Of a stretch of 10,116 nucleotides of DNA, positions 1-10,116 are shown piece after piece. Made by a program: the position numbers and the translations under genes. The stretch comes from a virus. Taxonomy: Duplodnaviria; Heunggongvirae; Uroviricota; Caudoviricetes. Location: the IMG/VR virus record IMGVR_UViG_2531839265_000009, positions 1 to 10,116 of that record. One strand, given 5' to 3'. Positions within the stretch are counted from its first letter, which is position 1. Every line of letters begins with the position of its first letter. Below the pieces are notes generated by a model. That model worked only from the letters and a program-made list of their open reading frames with translations, was not told the origin of the DNA and ran no database searches.

Positions 1-426
1 TTATAGATAGACCTCATCTATCAATCCCGTGCACACCTTCCCAAAAAAAAGTTTTCGAACCTGCGGCGATGTGAACAAGGGTAGGCGGGCGGTCCTGGGC
101 AGCCGGGGTTGCAAGGATTTGATCCGCCCCTCCCACCAATATTTATCGCCGTAACCGCTCCGGCTTCTTCCACTGGTACGTAATTTTTCTTTCTCCTGGT
201 ACATCTGCACGCGGCGACGGTACGACAACATCTCCAGAACTCTGGTGCGTATGTTGCGCATATCCACGCCGTTAAGCTCGATACCGTCACGGCGCATCAC
301 CTCAGCCACCACACGCGCGTAATTTCCGGCTATCACGCTGTCCGGCTGCGTGGCCTCCTGTTTGCCTGCTGCCTGGCTGGCTCCGGTAACGCGGCGAATC
401 ATTTTCAGCATTTCGGCTTCGGTCAT
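1..426 (-). CDS. hypothetical protein (141 aa from ATG 426; frame stays open to TTG at 456)
   Basis: Minus-strand ORF with TAA stop at 3..1. In-frame ATG at 426..424 lies 8 nt downstream of GGAGG (439..435). The N-terminal ~95 aa look like an ordinary helical protein; the C-terminal third is Arg/Pro-rich and overlaps a second open frame (21..290), so an undetected frameshift is possible. No family recognised. Confidence 0.45.
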   Translation of the reverse strand: MTEAEMLKMIRRVTGASQAAGKQEATQPDSVIAGNYARVVAEVMRRDGIELNGVDMRNIRTRVLEMLSYRRRVQMYQEKEKLRTSGRSRSGYGDKYWWEGRIKSLQPRLPRTARLPLFTSPQVRKLFFGKVCTGLIDEVYL

Positions 427-1673: not shown

Positions 1674-2009
1674 TTATCGCGCCAGTGGCTGAACTGATAT
1701 ACCTGACCCCGCAAAAGCTGCGCATTTCTTCACGTCTGTAGTGACGCTTTCAGGCCAGTTAACGGCGGCAATATTAAAAATCCCTGTCTTGTAACACTGT
1801 GCGGATTTTTGCTTTGCCGTGTCCAGGGGGTAGGAGGTCAGATAAATGGCCTTGCCTGATTCCTGACCGTCCCACGCCTTAAACTCGCCGTTCTCCGTCA
1901 TCATCAGCGGGGTAAACTCGGGAATAGCTCCGGCATCAGCGGCAAAGTGCACCAGCGTAGTGGAAACCTGCTGTGTACCGGAAAATAATTCAATATATGG
2001 AACGCCCAT
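1674..2009 (-). CDS. head decoration protein, lambda gpD-like
   Basis: 111-aa ORF. TPLMMTENGEFKAWDGQESGKAIYL...YKTGIFNIAAVNWPESVTTDVKKCAAFAGSGISV aligns along its whole length with lambda gpD as I remember it (TPLMLDTSSRKLVAWDG...[35 protein letters not shown]). GGGGGA RBS 5 nt upstream of the ATG. Confidence 0.8.
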   Translation of the reverse strand: MGVPYIELFSGTQQVSTTLVHFAADAGAIPEFTPLMMTENGEFKAWDGQESGKAIYLTSYPLDTAKQKSAQCYKTGIFNIAAVNWPESVTTDVKKCAAFAGSGISVQPLAR

Positions 2010-2021
2010 AAAAATCCCCCG

Positions 2022-3076
2022 TTAACCAATTTTCACGGTAACAAATTTGCGGATATCTGCCGGAACCGGTTGCGGTGCGCTGTGCGTCTGCACGTACTCA
2101 ATCGCCGGATCGCCTGGCTCAATCCAGTTTTTCGGGTAGTACATATTTCGTGTTGTGCCAGTTCTTACCGCGTCCTGATCCATAATTGCCCCATAGGCTA
2201 CCAGTCCTTTATTGCTGGTGTTCCCCAGAACAAGCAAATCAGGATCAAGAAAATGTTTTCTGTGCCGTCGCTGTCGGTGTATTTACCGGAATAAACAATA
2301 AGCGCCAGATCTCCCAGGTAGCCTTTAAAGCTCACCACTTCGCCCAGGTTTTTACACGCCAGCTCTGCCGCAGACTCTGACCCCCGGGACAAATCATAAA
2401 GTTCCCGGAATTTTTTAAAGCTGCGTAACAATCGCCAGGCATTCGCCCCCATAATCATGACGTTCGCGGGGCACTCAGCCTGTTCGGTATACAGTTCAAT
2501 ATCATCTGTCGGATCATGCGTCTCTTTATCCTGCTCAGACCATTTTTTCCCTGGCCCCTGCTGGATAATGCAGTTTGCTGGCATCCTCCAGTCGATTTCG
2601 TAGCGTTCTATGCCTTCGCCCTCAATGATATTTTTTCCGGTAGTGACTGCATTTACCGCCAGCCATTCAACACGGGCTTTGATGGCTTTTACCTGACGGC
2701 GAAGATTGCCGGTAATGAGGCGGAGGCGACGATAAGACGGGCTGTTGAGTGCTGCCGGATCTTCACCAGCAACACGCATAATGGTTTTTGATGGATCGAT
2801 TTCGTGTTTTGGCTTCATGTAGCCAGGCTGGATAATGCTTGTTTCGTACCCTTTATCACGCTGAACCTGACTACCCACCATCGGCGAACAAAATGCCGAC
2901 ATGGTTACTTCGTCATTTTCCAGATCATCTAACATAATCTTCTGTGTATCGAAGGTTGCGACGTTAGGGAAAAATAACGTGGTAAACAGCGGATTGAATT
3001 TAAAATCATCAACATCAGGACGATTCAGATAGGAAAAAAGCTGGTTTGTGTTCAGTGGTTGCGCCTTATCTGTCAT
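2022..3076 (-). pseudogene. major capsid protein, lambda gpE-like, interrupted by a 1-nt frameshift near 2250 (pseudogene or homopolymer sequencing error)
   Basis: ORF 2198..3076 matches the lambda gpE N-terminal and central regions (KFNPLFTTLFFP vs KFDPLFLRLFF; GYMKPKHEIDP vs GYVKPKHEVNP; THDPTDDIELY vs TYDPTDDIEAY). ORF 2022..2237 in another frame matches the gpE C-terminus (VLGNT..., YPKNWIEPGDPAIEY...). The frames switch at minus-strand gaaaacattttcttgat; one extra T would restore ...ENIFLDPDLLVLGNT.... GGGGGTGAG RBS upstream of ATG 3076. Confidence 0.8.
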
Positions 3077-3458
3077 TACTCACCCCCATGAGGCTGATTC
3101 ATACCAAGCGCAGCGCGTAAATGACTGCGTACCATCCAGCCGACTGACGGCTTCACCATGCACAACGGATCAAGGCCGATTTTTTTCCTGCCTCTGCGTT
3201 CTCCTCAAAGCGCGCATTAAGTGCGGCGATAATATCGGGGCTGATGTACACGGATACACCGCCCGGCTTCTGTGTTCCCATAAATGAGATTCCTCTTTGA
3301 CTAAAAACAAACATAACGAAAAGTCAGTCATGATTTTAATCATCGTTGCATTTTTTGCAATGATATTGACTGTTGTTGCAAATCATGAAATTATCATGCC
3401 GTGGTTTTACTCCTTGTACCACAGACTCATTCAGCATTAATCACGTTAGCGGCATGAA

Positions 3459-3538: not shown

Positions 3539-3961
3539 TTAAAACGGTATGTTATCCCCGTACGGATCATCATTACCCGCCTGTTGTTTTGCCCTGTTCA
3601 GCGCGTCAGTGGCCTGGCTCTGCTGGCCTTTTTTGCCGCCCGGGCGCGCCGTTCTGGCACTGATTACGCTGTCTGCGATAACCTGCCAGCCCTGCCGCGC
3701 TTCGCCGTTCTGGCCTGTCCACTGGCTTACCTGCATGTTACCCGCCACGCTCACCAGTTCGCCTTTGTGGTGTTTTGCCAGTGCGTCGGCCTGTCTGCCA
3801 AACGCCAGGACGGATAACCACATCGTCGCCGTTCCGTCATCTGCCTGGCTGCACGGCAGGGGAACCGCCATACTCGCCATCGCCATTTGTGTCCCTTTGC
3901 TGGTGGTCTTTAACTGCGGGTCAGTCGCCAACCGCCCGTAAGCCGCTATCTGTGCTGTCAT
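3539..3961 (-). CDS. ssb: single-stranded DNA-binding protein (SSB), plasmid/phage type
   Basis: 140-aa ORF. It has an OB-fold-like core (WLSVLAFGRQADALAKHHKGELVSVAGNMQVSQWTGQNG, compare E. coli SSB [40 protein letters not shown]), a Gly/Gln-rich linker and an acidic tail DDPYGDNIPF (compare DFDDDIPF). Its start overlaps the upstream gene stop as ATGA. Confidence 0.85.
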   Translation of the reverse strand: MTAQIAAYGRLATDPQLKTTSKGTQMAMASMAVPLPCSQADDGTATMWLSVLAFGRQADALAKHHKGELVSVAGNMQVSQWTGQNGEARQGWQVIADSVISARTARPGGKKGQQSQATDALNRAKQQAGNDDPYGDNIPF

Positions 3962-4209
3962 GCTGTCTGCTCTCCGGTTTTAACGTTGATGGTTGTCACC
4001 TGTTCCGCTTCGGCAATCTCCCGTTCTGTCAGCGTGGCAAAGTTTGCCGCCGCTGTGGTCATGAATGCGCTTATCAGTTCAGGATGCGCTTTCGCGTATC
4101 CTTCCCCGGCGTGGCGGTCTATCGTTCTGATTGCCACCTTTAAGGCGTGCTCTGTCATGTCTAATGCGCGATATTTTGGCGCTGTCTTATCTCTGCTTTT
4201 TCTGGTCAT
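3958..4209 (-). CDS. hypothetical protein (83 aa), translationally coupled to ssb
   Basis: Open frame whose stop overlaps the ssb start (ATGA). GAGGA lies immediately upstream of ATG 4209; an alternative internal start is M18. No family recognised. Confidence 0.5.
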   Translation of the reverse strand: MTRKSRDKTAPKYRALDMTEHALKVAIRTIDRHAGEGYAKAHPELISAFMTTAAANFATLTEREIAEAEQVTTINVKTGEQTA

Positions 4210-4218
4210 TCCTCACTG

Positions 4219-4412
4219 CTCCCCACTTTTACTACCCACTTTTTGAAATTACCCAACGTCTCCCCACTTCTTTTTTTGTGATTCTAACGTGATGTTTTTC
4301 AATGTATTTTTTATTCCCCACTTTTTGGGGTATATACAGGTGGGAAAGTGGGGAATCGCGTTTCAATTTTGTTAAATTCCCCACACTCCCCACTTTTACT
4401 ACCCACTTTTTA
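4219..4412. repeat. iteron-like repeat cluster with AT-rich spacer; candidate origin of replication
   Basis: 26-bp direct repeat CTCCCCACTTTTACTACCCACTTTTT at 4219..4244 and 4386..4411. Additional CCCCACTT(T) copies at 4262..4270 and 4316..4326. An inverted pair TTCCCCACTTT (4314..4324) / AAAGTGGGGAA (4345..4355). An AT-rich stretch at 4271..4315. The cluster lies immediately 3' of the helicase gene. Confidence 0.6.
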
Positions 4413-5783
4413 CAGTGGGCGCACGTCATCACCGTCAATAGCAATAACGCCATCACCTTCCAGCTTGTACAGCCAGCGCCGGAAGTGTTTCATCTCATAC
4501 CCCAGCTTTTTCATATCATCGCGCAACAACGGAATTGTGCATTTATCGCCGCGCTGTGTGCGTGAACGGATACAGCCCCATAGCGCGGCATGATTCTCCG
4601 TCTTGTTCCCGGCTTCCTCGATGCGCTCCAGTTCAACAGGTGGGCGCGGCTTATCCACAACCACCAGCGACGTGATTAACTCCTTGTCAGCGTCGGTAAA
4701 AAGCTCCACCACGCGTAAATCGTATGCAGCCTCTTTAAGTTCCTCCGCGTCCTTCATTTTGGTACAGGAGATAACCAGGGCTTCACTGTCTGCACCTTCC
4801 CGGCGAATACGGTATTCAGCGTCCAGAGATGCACGAAATGCACTGGAACCACGCGCCCCCTTTGTTTCATCCTTGCCGGAATGGTGAACCACCAGTACCG
4901 TGGCCCCTGTGCGTCGCTTCAGTTCGTCACATCCACGGATAAACGCCCCCATATCCCGCGCGTCATTTTCATCATTACCGCCAAAGCAACGCGCCAGCGT
5001 GTCCAGAATAATCATGCGTACCGGTTTACCCGTTTCCCGTTCAACCTGACGGGAAGCGATGACCATTTCATCAACATCAAGCGGGACCGCCGGAAAAATC
5101 GGGCGGTTTACCAGGTACAGATTTTTCACCCGTTCATCATTAACGATTTCCCATGCTTTGATACGACGAGGGACACCAATGCCACCTTCACCGACGACAT
5201 ACATCACCGAACCATGCGCCACCCTGCGGCCTCCCCAGTGGCGACCCGTGGCAACATGACACGCCCAGGAACACGCGAGGAATGATTTATAGGAACCGCT
5301 CGCGCCGTATGTGCTACACAATGAATTAGCCGGAATCACGCCCTTAACGACATAATCAAGCTGTGTGTCGTACCCTGCAGATCCAATACTCATTGGTAGC
5401 GTGGTTTTTCGCTGGCTGTATTGCTCGTCAGTAAGTATTTCCCCGCGCTCTGCCTGTTCGCGGATCCGTTGCAGGTAGTCGTGCCAGTTCTCCAGCTTCT
5501 GGCTGTGCATTCCCTCAGGGTAATAATTCGCATCCCGTACACCTGCCGCCGCCAGTTTTTGCCCGATGGCATTAATATTTGACGGCTTGATGTGGCCTGC
5601 CTTGTATAGCCGGACACAATAGCGACCATCATCGATGATTTTCAGGTCTGCCAGTTCGTCAAGCTGGCTGTCTCCCAGCCATACAGGCGGAACATTGTCG
5701 CCAGCAAGTCGCCCGTCCTGTTCCTGCCATTGTTTCGCGTGCGCCCAGGCATCACTACCCGCAAAAATAATGACTTCGGTCAT
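4410..5783 (-). CDS. replicative helicase, RecA-fold AAA_25 / RSF1010 RepA-like ATPase domain with an unassigned ~150-aa N-terminal domain
   Basis: 457-aa ORF. RMIILDTLARCF (Walker B-like), TVLVVHHSGKD and KGARGSSAF match the RepA/AAA_25 helicase pattern as I remember it (RLMVLDTLRRF, SIVFLHHASKG, ASRGSS). The P-loop region is GASGSYKS at 5283..5306. Confidence 0.75.
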   Translation of the reverse strand: MTEVIIFAGSDAWAHAKQWQEQDGRLAGDNVPPVWLGDSQLDELADLKIIDDGRYCVRLYKAGHIKPSNINAIGQKLAAAGVRDANYYPEGMHSQKLENWHDYLQRIREQAERGEILTDEQYSQRKTTLPMSIGSAGYDTQLDYVVKGVIPANSLCSTYGASGSYKSFLACSWACHVATGRHWGGRRVAHGSVMYVVGEGGIGVPRRIKAWEIVNDERVKNLYLVNRPIFPAVPLDVDEMVIASRQVERETGKPVRMIILDTLARCFGGNDENDARDMGAFIRGCDELKRRTGATVLVVHHSGKDETKGARGSSAFRASLDAEYRIRREGADSEALVISCTKMKDAEELKEAAYDLRVVELFTDADKELITSLVVVDKPRPPVELERIEEAGNKTENHAALWGCIRSRTQRGDKCTIPLLRDDMKKLGYEMKHFRRWLYKLEGDGVIAIDGDDVRPL

Positions 5784-5820
5784 TTTGTCGTGCGGCTGTT
5801 TTTTAAGTTCGGTGCCAGTT

Positions 5821-6190: not shown

Positions 6191-6334
6191 TTAACAGAGT
6201 GCTGAAAGCAGAAAATAAATCCCCCCCTGTTCGGCATGAACTTCGGTTAATTTAATTAATACCGCTTTCATTTCCAGTGCCCGATTTAATGCATTCTCAG
6301 AATGAATAAGAACATCGAAAGGGATTTCATTCAT
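6191..6334 (-). CDS. hypothetical small protein (47 aa)
   Basis: My own translation from ATG 6334..6332 gives MNEIPFDVLIHSENALNRALEMKAVLIKLTEVHAEQGGIYFLLSALC, stop TAA at 6193..6191. It is below the ORF-track length cutoff. Its start overlaps the stop of the upstream gene (ATGAATGA) and shares the start context GGTGAGCCATG with that gene. Confidence 0.4.
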   Translation of the reverse strand: MNEIPFDVLIHSENALNRALEMKAVLIKLTEVHAEQGGIYFLLSALC

Positions 6335-6791
6335 GGCTCACCACCTCCGGGAATTTTCTTCTGTAACGCGCCTCTGCAACATATTCCGCATAGTCCGACG
6401 CAATATTGAGAATATCCACACCCTCTGCCCTGTAGCCACTGGTACTGATAAGGAAAAATGCGGCTTTCATCATGTCGGCAACGCATAACAACGCATCGCC
6501 GGTGTGTTCTGGTGCGCCATCAAATTCCTGTTTCAGGGCATTAAAACGATCATCACGCATAACCCCCCCATTTTCACAATCAGCAATCAGGATGGCTTTA
6601 GCCTCATTCAGTGCCATATCAGCGGTAAGCTGTGCGTAGGCCAGCGAATGGGGGATTATTGCCCCTGTATACTCCGGCTCTCTGCTAATGTGTTTTTCCG
6701 CGGTTGCTGCCGTGCATGAAATATTAATCAGCGCGTGCATCAGCGTTCTGATAGCTTCGGCGGCTGCGTCCGGACGGGTGTTATTGCACAT
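6327..6791 (-). CDS. hypothetical protein (154 aa)
   Basis: Open frame with GGGGGTGAG RBS and start ATG 6791..6789. Overlaps the upstream gene by 11 nt and the downstream small ORF by 8 nt. No family recognised. Confidence 0.55.
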   Translation of the reverse strand: MCNNTRPDAAAEAIRTLMHALINISCTAATAEKHISREPEYTGAIIPHSLAYAQLTADMALNEAKAILIADCENGGVMRDDRFNALKQEFDGAPEHTGDALLCVADMMKAAFFLISTSGYRAEGVDILNIASDYAEYVAEARYRRKFPEVVSHE

Positions 6792-8142: not shown

Positions 8143-8349
8143 TTACGCAGCCGTTCCGCGCGCTTCTTCCTCGCGTTCTTTCAGCCAGGCCAGCACCTCA
8201 TCTTCATACCAGCCAACACGGCGCAGACCGATTTTGAAGCCTTTCGGGAATTTTCCGGCGCTGATCATGTCCTGTAGCGAACTGTCTGCCTTGATGCGCA
8301 GAATATTTTTTACTTCCTGACGGGTAAGAATTTTTCTGATTACTTCCAT
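8143..8349 (-). CDS. alpA: AlpA-family phage transcriptional regulator (MerR-like HTH; excisionase/activator-like)
   Basis: 68-aa ORF. ILTRQEVKNILRIKADSSLQDMISAGKFPKGFKIGLRRVGWYEDEVLAWL matches the AlpA pattern (L..V....G.S..T.Y.....G.FP.....G.R.VGW...EV..WL). GAGGT RBS 9 nt upstream of ATG 8349. Confidence 0.85.
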   Translation of the reverse strand: MEVIRKILTRQEVKNILRIKADSSLQDMISAGKFPKGFKIGLRRVGWYEDEVLAWLKEREEEARGTAA

Positions 8350-8414: not shown

Positions 8415-8454
8415 AAAACAGTACTCACCGTTTTAAAACGGTACTCACTGTTTT
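8415..8454. promoter_or_regulatory. two tandem 20-bp imperfectly palindromic repeats upstream of alpA (candidate operator)
   Basis: AAAACAGTACTCACCGTTTT at 8415..8434 and AAAACGGTACTCACTGTTTT at 8435..8454, differing at 2 positions. Each has inverted ends AAAAC.G / C.GTTTT around TACTCAC. Confidence 0.55.
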
Positions 8455-8482
8455 TATCTCATTGATTACGCTTTCTTTTTGC

Positions 8483-8874: not shown

Positions 8875-10116
8875 TTACACGGCACGGATACCCCTTTTAC
8901 CACTGGCTATGGTCACTCCGGTAGCTGCGGCCTCTACAAATTCCCCCCACCAGCGCATAAGCACCACGCGCTTTTCCAGGTAGTTACTTCGGTTATATGC
9001 TCGCCTTACCTCGTTCGTGTCCACGTGTGCGAGTGCGGCCTCGATTACGTCCGGCTCGAATCCTTCCTCGTTCGCTGCTGTACTGAATATGGCGCGTAAT
9101 CCGTGAGACACCAGCACACCAGCGTATCCCATCCGGCGCAATGCAGCGTTAGCGGTCTGGCTGCTCATTGGCAGCATTGGATTTTTAAGGCTGGGAAAAA
9201 CATGTTCCCTGTGTGCGCTGATTGGCTTCATTGTTTCCAGTACAGCCATCGCCTGACCGCAAAGAGGGATCACATGGTCACGGCGCATCTTCATGCGTCC
9301 GGCTGGAATCGTCCATGTTTCGGCATCGAGATCTATTTCTTCCCAGCGTGCGGCGGCTGCTTCGGCTGGGCGTGCTACGGTCAGCAGTTGCCACTCAATC
9401 AGCAATCTGGTTTGCCGTTCTATGCTGGCGACCGATAAATCGTGCATTAGCTGCGGTAGCTGTTCCGGTCGGATGGTTGGCATATGCTTTTTAGTGGGAG
9501 AAGGGAATGCCTTGCGGACGTTCGCTGCGGTGTTGATGTCAATCAGCCCACTGTTGGCAGCAAAATCCATCACTTCATTGATGCGTTGTAAAACGCGTTT
9601 CAGAGTTTCCAGGTTGCCACGCGCTTTAATGGGGGTGAGTATCTCGACAAAGCGGCGAGCGGTGAGGGTATCTATTGGCGTTTTTCCGATGTACGGGAAT
9701 ACGTATTTTTCCATGGATCGCCAGATATCCTTAATCGTGTTGTAAGCCAGATTCTGGCCTTTTTTCATCTCGTACCAGTCCGAGGCAACTTTTTCGAACG
9801 TGTTGCCCTTTTTCCTGCTCTCTGCTTCACGTTTCCGGCGTTCGTAGTCCTGTGGGTCAGTTCCCTTTGCTATGAGTGACCTGTATTCATTCCGTCGCTC
9901 TCTGGCATCAGACAGGGAAACATCATTTAGCGATCCAAGGCTGATAATAGTCCGTTTTTTATCTGCCGGGCGGTAGTACGTAAAACGCCAGATTTTTGAT
10001 CCGGAGGGCTTCACCAGAAGAAATAATCCTCCGCCATCCTGCAGGGTATATTCCTTTTCCCCTGGTCGTGCGTTTTTGATCTCCGTAATAGTTAGTGGGG
10101 GGGTTTTTCGTGCCAT
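8875..10116 (-). CDS. int: tyrosine site-specific integrase, P4-family (prophage CP4-like)
   Basis: 413-aa ORF. N-terminus YTLQDGGGLFLLVKPSGSKIWRFTYY is the typical P4-type integrase arm domain. C-terminal catalytic region contains the HGLR box (VSHGLRAIFSTAA) and a downstream Tyr (RRAYNRSNYLEKR). The ATG is the last three bases of the window, so its RBS and the attachment site lie outside. Confidence 0.95.
   Translation of the reverse strand: MARKTPPLTITEIKNARPGEKEYTLQDGGGLFLLVKPSGSKIWRFTYYRPADKKRTIISLGSLNDVSLSDARERRNEYRSLIAKGTDPQDYERRKREAESRKKGNTFEKVASDWYEMKKGQNLAYNTIKDIWRSMEKYVFPYIGKTPIDTLTARRFVEILTPIKARGNLETLKRVLQRINEVMDFAANSGLIDINTAANVRKAFPSPTKKHMPTIRPEQLPQLMHDLSVASIERQTRLLIEWQLLTVARPAEAAAARWEEIDLDAETWTIPAGRMKMRRDHVIPLCGQAMAVLETMKPISAHREHVFPSLKNPMLPMSSQTANAALRRMGYAGVLVSHGLRAIFSTAANEEGFEPDVIEAALAHVDTNEVRRAYNRSNYLEKRVVLMRWWGEFVEAAATGVTIASGKRGIRAV

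Follow-up and report, generated by a model that had tools for sequence, protein, structure and literature searches.

A lambda gpE-like capsid gene in the window, by which we mean the whole stretch of 10,116 bases analysed here, is written in two reading frames. This raises the question of whether the gene has been inactivated, whether the two frames are joined at expression, or whether a base present in the real DNA is absent from the assembly. The window is the reverse complement of sequence in JH594563.1, from Escherichia coli 4_1_47FAA (GCA_000243195.1).

Reading frames of the capsid gene and the missing base

The 5' part of the gene (2198..3076, minus strand) begins with ATG and encodes 292 aa; it has been deposited as EHP64198.1, 'hypothetical protein HMPREF0986_03832'. 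The 3' part (2022..2258, minus strand) lies in the -1 frame and covers residues 278-351 of the protein, which has 351 aa when intact. In the ORF listing, it is represented by a second ORF of 71 aa with a TTG start (2022..2237, minus strand). Residues 1-277 of the 292-aa product are authentic, and the final 15 residues are out of frame and are followed by a premature TAG. Thus, in the window as written, only about the first 277 residues of the capsid protein are in frame. In the protein alignment, frame 0 agrees with the intact homologues through ...YTDSDGTE, and the residues beyond this point, NIFLILICLFWGTPAIKDW*, are out of frame; the translation of the 292-aa ORF has the C-terminal end ...YTDSDGTENIFLILICLFWGTPAIKDW. 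The downstream frame is open from 2282 and reads (R)KHFLDPDLLVLGNTSNKGLVAYG...VKIG, the same as in the intact 351-aa relative, and its translation from 2282 is ...RKHFLDPDLLVLGNTSNKGLVAYGAIMDQDAVRTG...FVTVKIG*.

An alignment with 13 homologues gave the same picture. The first ORF tracks the homologues to G-T-E, and the second frame tracks them thereafter, through the C-terminus. In addition, the 3' part keeps the nearly invariant residues G291, G296, I298, D300, P324, T331, S333, P335, and P339. Furthermore, the DNA of both halves matches an intact gene at 100% identity over 1,301 bases, two one-base gaps aside, and the split arrangement is therefore not due to chance. The two reading frames are the halves of one lambda gpE-like capsid protein. 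The preliminary description had reached this view from the minus-strand ORFs 2198..3076 and 2022..2237, which we confirmed. It had also placed the switch of frame within 2237-2260. Since frame 0 is good to GTE and the other frame is identical to the intact relative after it, the translations and the protein alignment bear this position out.

The site of the frameshift is at 2256..2259 on the minus strand, where the window has A4 (GAAAAC) and nine of nine informative relatives, that is, those with conserved flanks at this site, have A5 (GAAAAAC). GAAAAA is also found here in a more distant relative. The closest complete-genome relative, NZ_CM143727.1, is identical to window positions 1900..3200 except for two one-base gaps, A5 versus A4 at GAAAA(A)C (2256-2259) and A8 versus A7 at 3180-3186. 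The intact junction is GAA AAA CAT TTT, which encodes E-K-H-F with Glu277-Lys278 and leads to the 351-aa protein. At the four junction positions, the sampled full-length homologues (at least 50% identity) have E or Q, then K, Q or H, then H, Y, P or R, and finally F or Y.

It had been suggested that one additional T would restore a continuous protein. An extra T in the TTTT run (2250-2253) would indeed reopen the frame; however, the junction would then read E-N-I-F, from which the sampled homologues differ, and this candidate was rejected. At the junction the homologues encode Glu-Lys (GAA AAA), which places the loss in the A run at 2256-2259 and not in TTTT.

The island and its capsid homologue

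Its genes and its insertion site identify the element as a phage-inducible chromosomal island (PICI) of the EcCICFT073 type, about 10.7 kb long. Gram-negative PICIs, with EcCICFT073 of E. coli CFT073 as the reference, were described by Fillol-Salom et al. (2018, ISME J, PMC6092414). The island studied here is located at the 3' end of tRNA-Pro(GGG), between yejM and yejO, and the tRNA end is partially repeated at its right end. On the minus strand, the gene order is integrase, AlpA, small ORFs (including Icd-like and DUF4222 proteins), RepA helicase, SSB, a 68-aa ORF, capsid, decoration, and three small ORFs. The tyrosine integrase gene (8875..10116, minus strand; 413 aa; Pfam PF00589, PF22022, and PF13356) is intact. 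The collection indexes an identical integrase in 159 blocks; 24 contigs from among these were read, and the nine comparison islands, all from independent assemblies, were found through this integrase. The AlpA-family regulator (8143..8349, minus strand) has 68 aa and matches Pfam PF05930. The RepA-family helicase (AAA_25; 4410..5783, minus strand) has 457 aa as called here; judging from the length of 471 aa in relatives, its native start should lie about 14 codons upstream. The gene for the single-stranded DNA-binding protein (3539..3961, minus strand) encodes 140 aa (Pfam PF00436).

The island thus has an integrase and AlpA at one end, its own replication module (RepA-family helicase and SSB), a small size (the class of about 10-15 kb), and a specific attachment site, as expected of a PICI. 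No portal, protease, large terminase, tail, or lysis genes were found in the island gene list.

The comparison with EcCICFT073 showed the same order and sizes of genes, namely a 207-nt gene, the 1,056-nt capsid gene (c1499), the 336-nt decoration gene (c1500), and small ORFs. Int, alpA, and a replication module are also shared, at a size of about 10.7 kb for the island studied here. The repaired capsid protein is 85% identical to c1499 over all 351 residues. However, the two islands differ in their site, which is tRNA-Pro(GGG) between yejM and yejO here and next to phoQ in CFT073. They also differ in that the capsid gene reads as frameshifted here, most likely artefactually.

The repaired capsid protein matches Pfam PF03864 (Phage_cap_E) with E = 3.8e-49 and 167.9 bits (cut-off 22.9), covering profile positions 14-328 of 329. 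It also matches PDB 3BQW ('putative capsid protein of prophage') nearly end to end (E = 4.6e-206) and lambda gpE (7VI9) over residues 22-350 (E = 4e-84). By these matches, the capsid homologue is a genuine relative of lambda gpE. The head decoration gene (1674..2009, minus strand) lies directly downstream of the capsid gene; it is intact, encodes a lambda gpD-like protein of 111 aa (Pfam PF02924, E = 3.1e-16), and is annotated likewise in relatives. The pairing of a gpE-like gene with a gpD-like decoration gene is the same as in bacteriophage lambda. Unlike lambda gpE, however, the gene here is located on a satellite island without portal, protease, or large terminase genes.

In EcCICFT073, deletion of c1499 or c1500 left lambda interference and island transfer unchanged, and neither a role of the CFT073 homologue in capsid formation nor a capsid-size phenotype was found (PMC6092414). 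The locus had been read in the preliminary description as carrying a major capsid gene. The PICI architecture, the match to c1499, and the absence of a c1499 phenotype together argue instead for the capsid homologue of a satellite, and not for the essential capsid gene of a prophage. Likewise, the possibility that this is a prophage's own major capsid gene was rejected, because the portal, protease, large terminase, tail, and lysis genes are lacking and the island matches EcCICFT073. Satellites of this kind are known, and the element is one more example; its intact form is in circulation in E. coli strains with hardly any change.

Homopolymer lengths and the origin of the frameshift

The same island was found in the independent assemblies L011, L012, L014, and L015, which differ from the window by 1, 0, 1, and 4 substitutions, respectively, over 10,046-10,116 aligned bases. 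All four encode the 351-aa capsid protein, the 471-aa RepA, the 68-aa product of the gene upstream, and a 94-aa product of the last gene. L011 and L014, which were aligned end to end with one substitution each, served as the reference for the indel count. Compared with either of them, the window has 10 indels, all of which are homopolymer contractions in the window, and there is no expansion. A/T runs account for 7 of the 10. No contraction was found in the 314 runs of three bases or the 104 runs of four bases, while 1 of 69 runs of five, 3 of 22 runs of six, 2 of 8-9 runs of seven, 2-4 of 6-9 runs of eight, and 2 of 2 runs of nine bases were contracted in the window. The contraction rate thus climbs with the true run length, from 0/418 for runs of 3-4 bases to 2/2 for runs of 9 bases. 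The contraction in the capsid gene, A5 to A4, is the least typical of the ten (1/69 five-base runs).

Several other genes are affected by these contractions, all given here on the minus strand. At 3180..3186, A8 became A7 (A8 in 10/10 relatives), with the result that the gene preceding the capsid gene is disrupted; it has 68 aa in relatives and is called as 42 aa in this assembly. At 5799..5804, A7 became A6 (A7 in 8/8 relatives) around codon 6 of the gene for the RepA-family helicase. The helicase is called 14 codons short here (457 aa versus 471 aa in the listed relatives), and the 457-aa version is unique to this assembly. At 184..188, A6 became A5 (A6 in 7/7 relatives) and the last gene of the island changes frame close to its 3' end; this gene has 94 aa in relatives and is read through to 141 aa here. 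Three contractions are intergenic: T6 to T5 at 3303..3307 (T6 in 10/10 relatives), A6 to A5 at 8451..8455, upstream of alpA (A6 in 9/9 relatives), and A8 to A7 at 4271..4277 (A8 in most relatives, with one A7 and one A9). The relatives agree with each other at the A/T sites except for 4271-4277; thus, those runs are not naturally variable. The G runs are G8/9 to G7 at 6563..6569, which is shorter here than in any relative although the relatives themselves vary (G8-G10), G8 to G7 at 6221..6227, which is variable among relatives (G7-G10), and G9 to G8 at 1662-1669, a contraction relative to L011 and L014. One more contraction, A7 to A6, was found just beyond the window edge.

The Broad HMP reference strains of that era, with HMPREF locus tags, were presumably sequenced by 454. 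We infer that the pattern stems from flow-based (454-type) sequencing. Errors of 454 sequencing in assembled contigs are biased to A/T, are more common in longer runs, and cause artificial frameshifts (Luo et al. 2012, PLoS One, PMC3277595). The differences of the window are of the same single-base run-length type and share the A/T bias, the length dependence, and the false frameshifts; however, 10 contractions of 10 is a stronger directional bias than can be documented from that paper (PMC3277595).

For a control, about 10-11 kb of flanking chromosome on the same scaffold was compared with other E. coli genomes, and no frameshift in core genes was found in it. However, there is only one run of at least 7 bases in the right-flank coding sequence versus 15 in the island. 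For this coding sequence (5.3 kb), 0.93 contractions are expected at the length-specific rates of the island, with P(0) = 0.4. As the flanks have few long runs, their clean genes are only weakly informative and nearly neutral. Long intergenic runs in the flanks were contracted: both comparable 8-base runs, and A8 to A7 between yejK and yejL. An error process acting across the whole assembly would fit the flank control, which is, however, no proof of it. The split of the conserved gene yejH, for a radD-like helicase, into two parts (181+ and 402 aa) was considered as a second core-gene frameshift and was rejected, because it is caused by a scaffold gap of 22 N. This gap in JH594563.1 (L021 335-356) is located inside yejH, 5.3 kb upstream of the island. 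It identifies the source as a gapped draft scaffold, and it speaks of draft quality and says nothing on homopolymer error.

Real slippage mutations likewise favour homopolymers and scale with run length. The deletion could be real: the copy in 4_1_47FAA would be a decaying PICI in which replication slippage in the A5 run made a pseudogene of the capsid homologue. We regard this as unlikely. Homopolymers are natural hotspots of slippage, the flanking core genes have no frameshift, and related islands in complete genomes do have annotated frameshifts, in a small ORF (NZ_CP098183.1) and in ssb (NZ_CP091026.1). In addition, loss of the gene could be tolerated, since the capsid homologue of EcCICFT073 was deleted without detectable phenotype (PMC6092414). 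Several observations speak against this reading. Over 10.1 kb, the window has a single private substitution and ten contractions, with no expansion; in mutation accumulation, substitutions outnumber small indels, even in mismatch-repair mutants. Two other genes and the gene for replication would need to be hit simultaneously in an island otherwise identical to copies in other strains, and the long runs in the flanks are contracted too. Furthermore, the preliminary description had held that the same frameshift in independent isolates would support a real pseudogene; the truncated 292-aa product occurs on only one contig of the whole collection (JH594563.1, GCA_000243195.1), and the repaired capsid sequence, identical to WP_097725621.1, on 303. 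The wider form of this reading, in which the A4 and the other contractions are all real and the island is a freshly inactivated PICI that lost the capsid homologue, the replication gene, and two small genes to slippage, perhaps in a transient mutator background, seems improbable to us. If it were true, the window would show a satellite caught in the course of losing its functions in a commensal of the human gut. Mutation does not leave differences of this kind, which are contraction-only, length-dependent, and mostly in A/T runs and are accompanied by only one substitution. Identical island copies, which are evidently mobile, sit in chromosomal backgrounds that differ, with 10 substitutions in some 450 bases of the neighbouring yejM. 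Damage to the RepA start and to the 68-aa and 94-aa genes as well is not easily explained in an island that otherwise matches such copies.

Alternatively, the two frames could be joined at expression, either through a programmed ribosomal -1 frameshift such as TTC to TTT or through transcriptional slippage, and a full-length capsid protein would result. To regain the downstream frame, a -1 shift could occur at any point of the zone of overlap (85 nt, 2282..2198), in which A4 and T4 runs are present. However, no X XXY YYZ heptamer in frame 0 was found in 2282..2198, and the only runs in this zone are A4, T4, and G4. RNA-polymerase slippage needs runs of about 8-9 bases, far longer than those in the zone. 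The homologues also point away from a conserved recoding arrangement, since a single continuous frame is present in most of the listed ones (about 343-355 aa), in all of the aligned ones, and in all nine of the closest island copies that carry the gene; in the last two groups its length is 343-352 aa. Moreover, the site differs from the relatives by exactly one base, among ten similar run-length discrepancies. Programmed frameshifting was rejected, as the overlap has no heptamer and the two-frame layout is not conserved, and joining of the frames at expression in any form is extremely improbable.

Judging from the aligned relatives, the capsid frameshift is thus very probably an undercalled homopolymer, that is, an artefact of base-calling or assembly. 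One A of the five-A run (GAA AAA, Glu277-Lys278) would have been undercalled in the draft assembly GCA_000243195.1, and the real DNA most likely carries an intact 351-aa lambda gpE-like capsid homologue. Of the three explanations offered in the preliminary description, the homopolymer miscall is the one that we retain; the -1 slip was not upheld, and genuine inactivation is unlikely in view of the contraction-only pattern and the single contig. The pseudogene call in this 2011-era draft is no evidence for inactivation of the capsid gene, prophage decay, or recoding. In addition, at least three further gene disruptions in the window are of the same artefactual kind, namely those of the RepA start, the 68-aa gene, and the 94-aa gene.

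Variation among sister islands

The sister islands with an identical integrase (L013, L016, L017, L018, and L019) are modular mosaics. Their replication slot is occupied by a RepA-type helicase (471 aa) or by a D5_N/Pox_D5 primase (601 aa). Their morphogenesis slot is filled either by a gpE-like capsid and a gpD-like decoration protein or by a DUF1441 protein together with a ClpP-protease/capsid fusion of 613 aa. Some of the sister islands have a Nu1-like small terminase, and others lack it. The only private substitution of the window relative to 12 relatives is at position 4087, where the minus strand has G and all others have A; it falls within an 83-aa ORF (3958..4209).

Islands from independent assemblies that are otherwise nearly identical differ in the length of three minus-strand poly-G tracts. 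The tract at 6563-6569 is G7 here and G8-G10 in relatives, and it toggles the ORF 6327..6791, which reads as 154 aa with G7, as 79 + 81 aa with G8, as 86 + 77 aa with G9, and as 155 aa in a relative with G10. The tract at 6221-6227 (G7-G10) affects a 69-aa ORF, which is on at G8 and is cut to 47-52 aa at G7, G9, and G10; RefSeq flags the ORF at this tract as 'frameshifted' in NZ_CP098183.1. The tract at 1662-1669 (G8 or G9) sits immediately before the ATG of a 115-aa ORF. These tracts could be phase-variable contingency tracts in PICI, or they could be assembly noise in poly-G.

One island with the identical integrase (L019, at 9770-10000) is not next to tRNA-Pro. It is located in the ykg region, after L36/L31 paralogues, an intimin-like gene, and an AraC-family gene, and no tRNA was found in 21 kb. 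The sequence that it shares with the other copies begins at TCTCGTGCCGACCA, which is the 3' end of tRNA-Pro in those copies. This start at the tRNA-Pro 3' end suggests that the copy occupies a putative secondary attachment site. At the right end of the island studied here, about 390 bases beyond window position 1, there is a putative attR repeat (L005 11463-11470). It reads TCTCGTG--CCA in this assembly versus TCTCGTGGACCA in close relatives, a two-base difference that lies outside a homopolymer.
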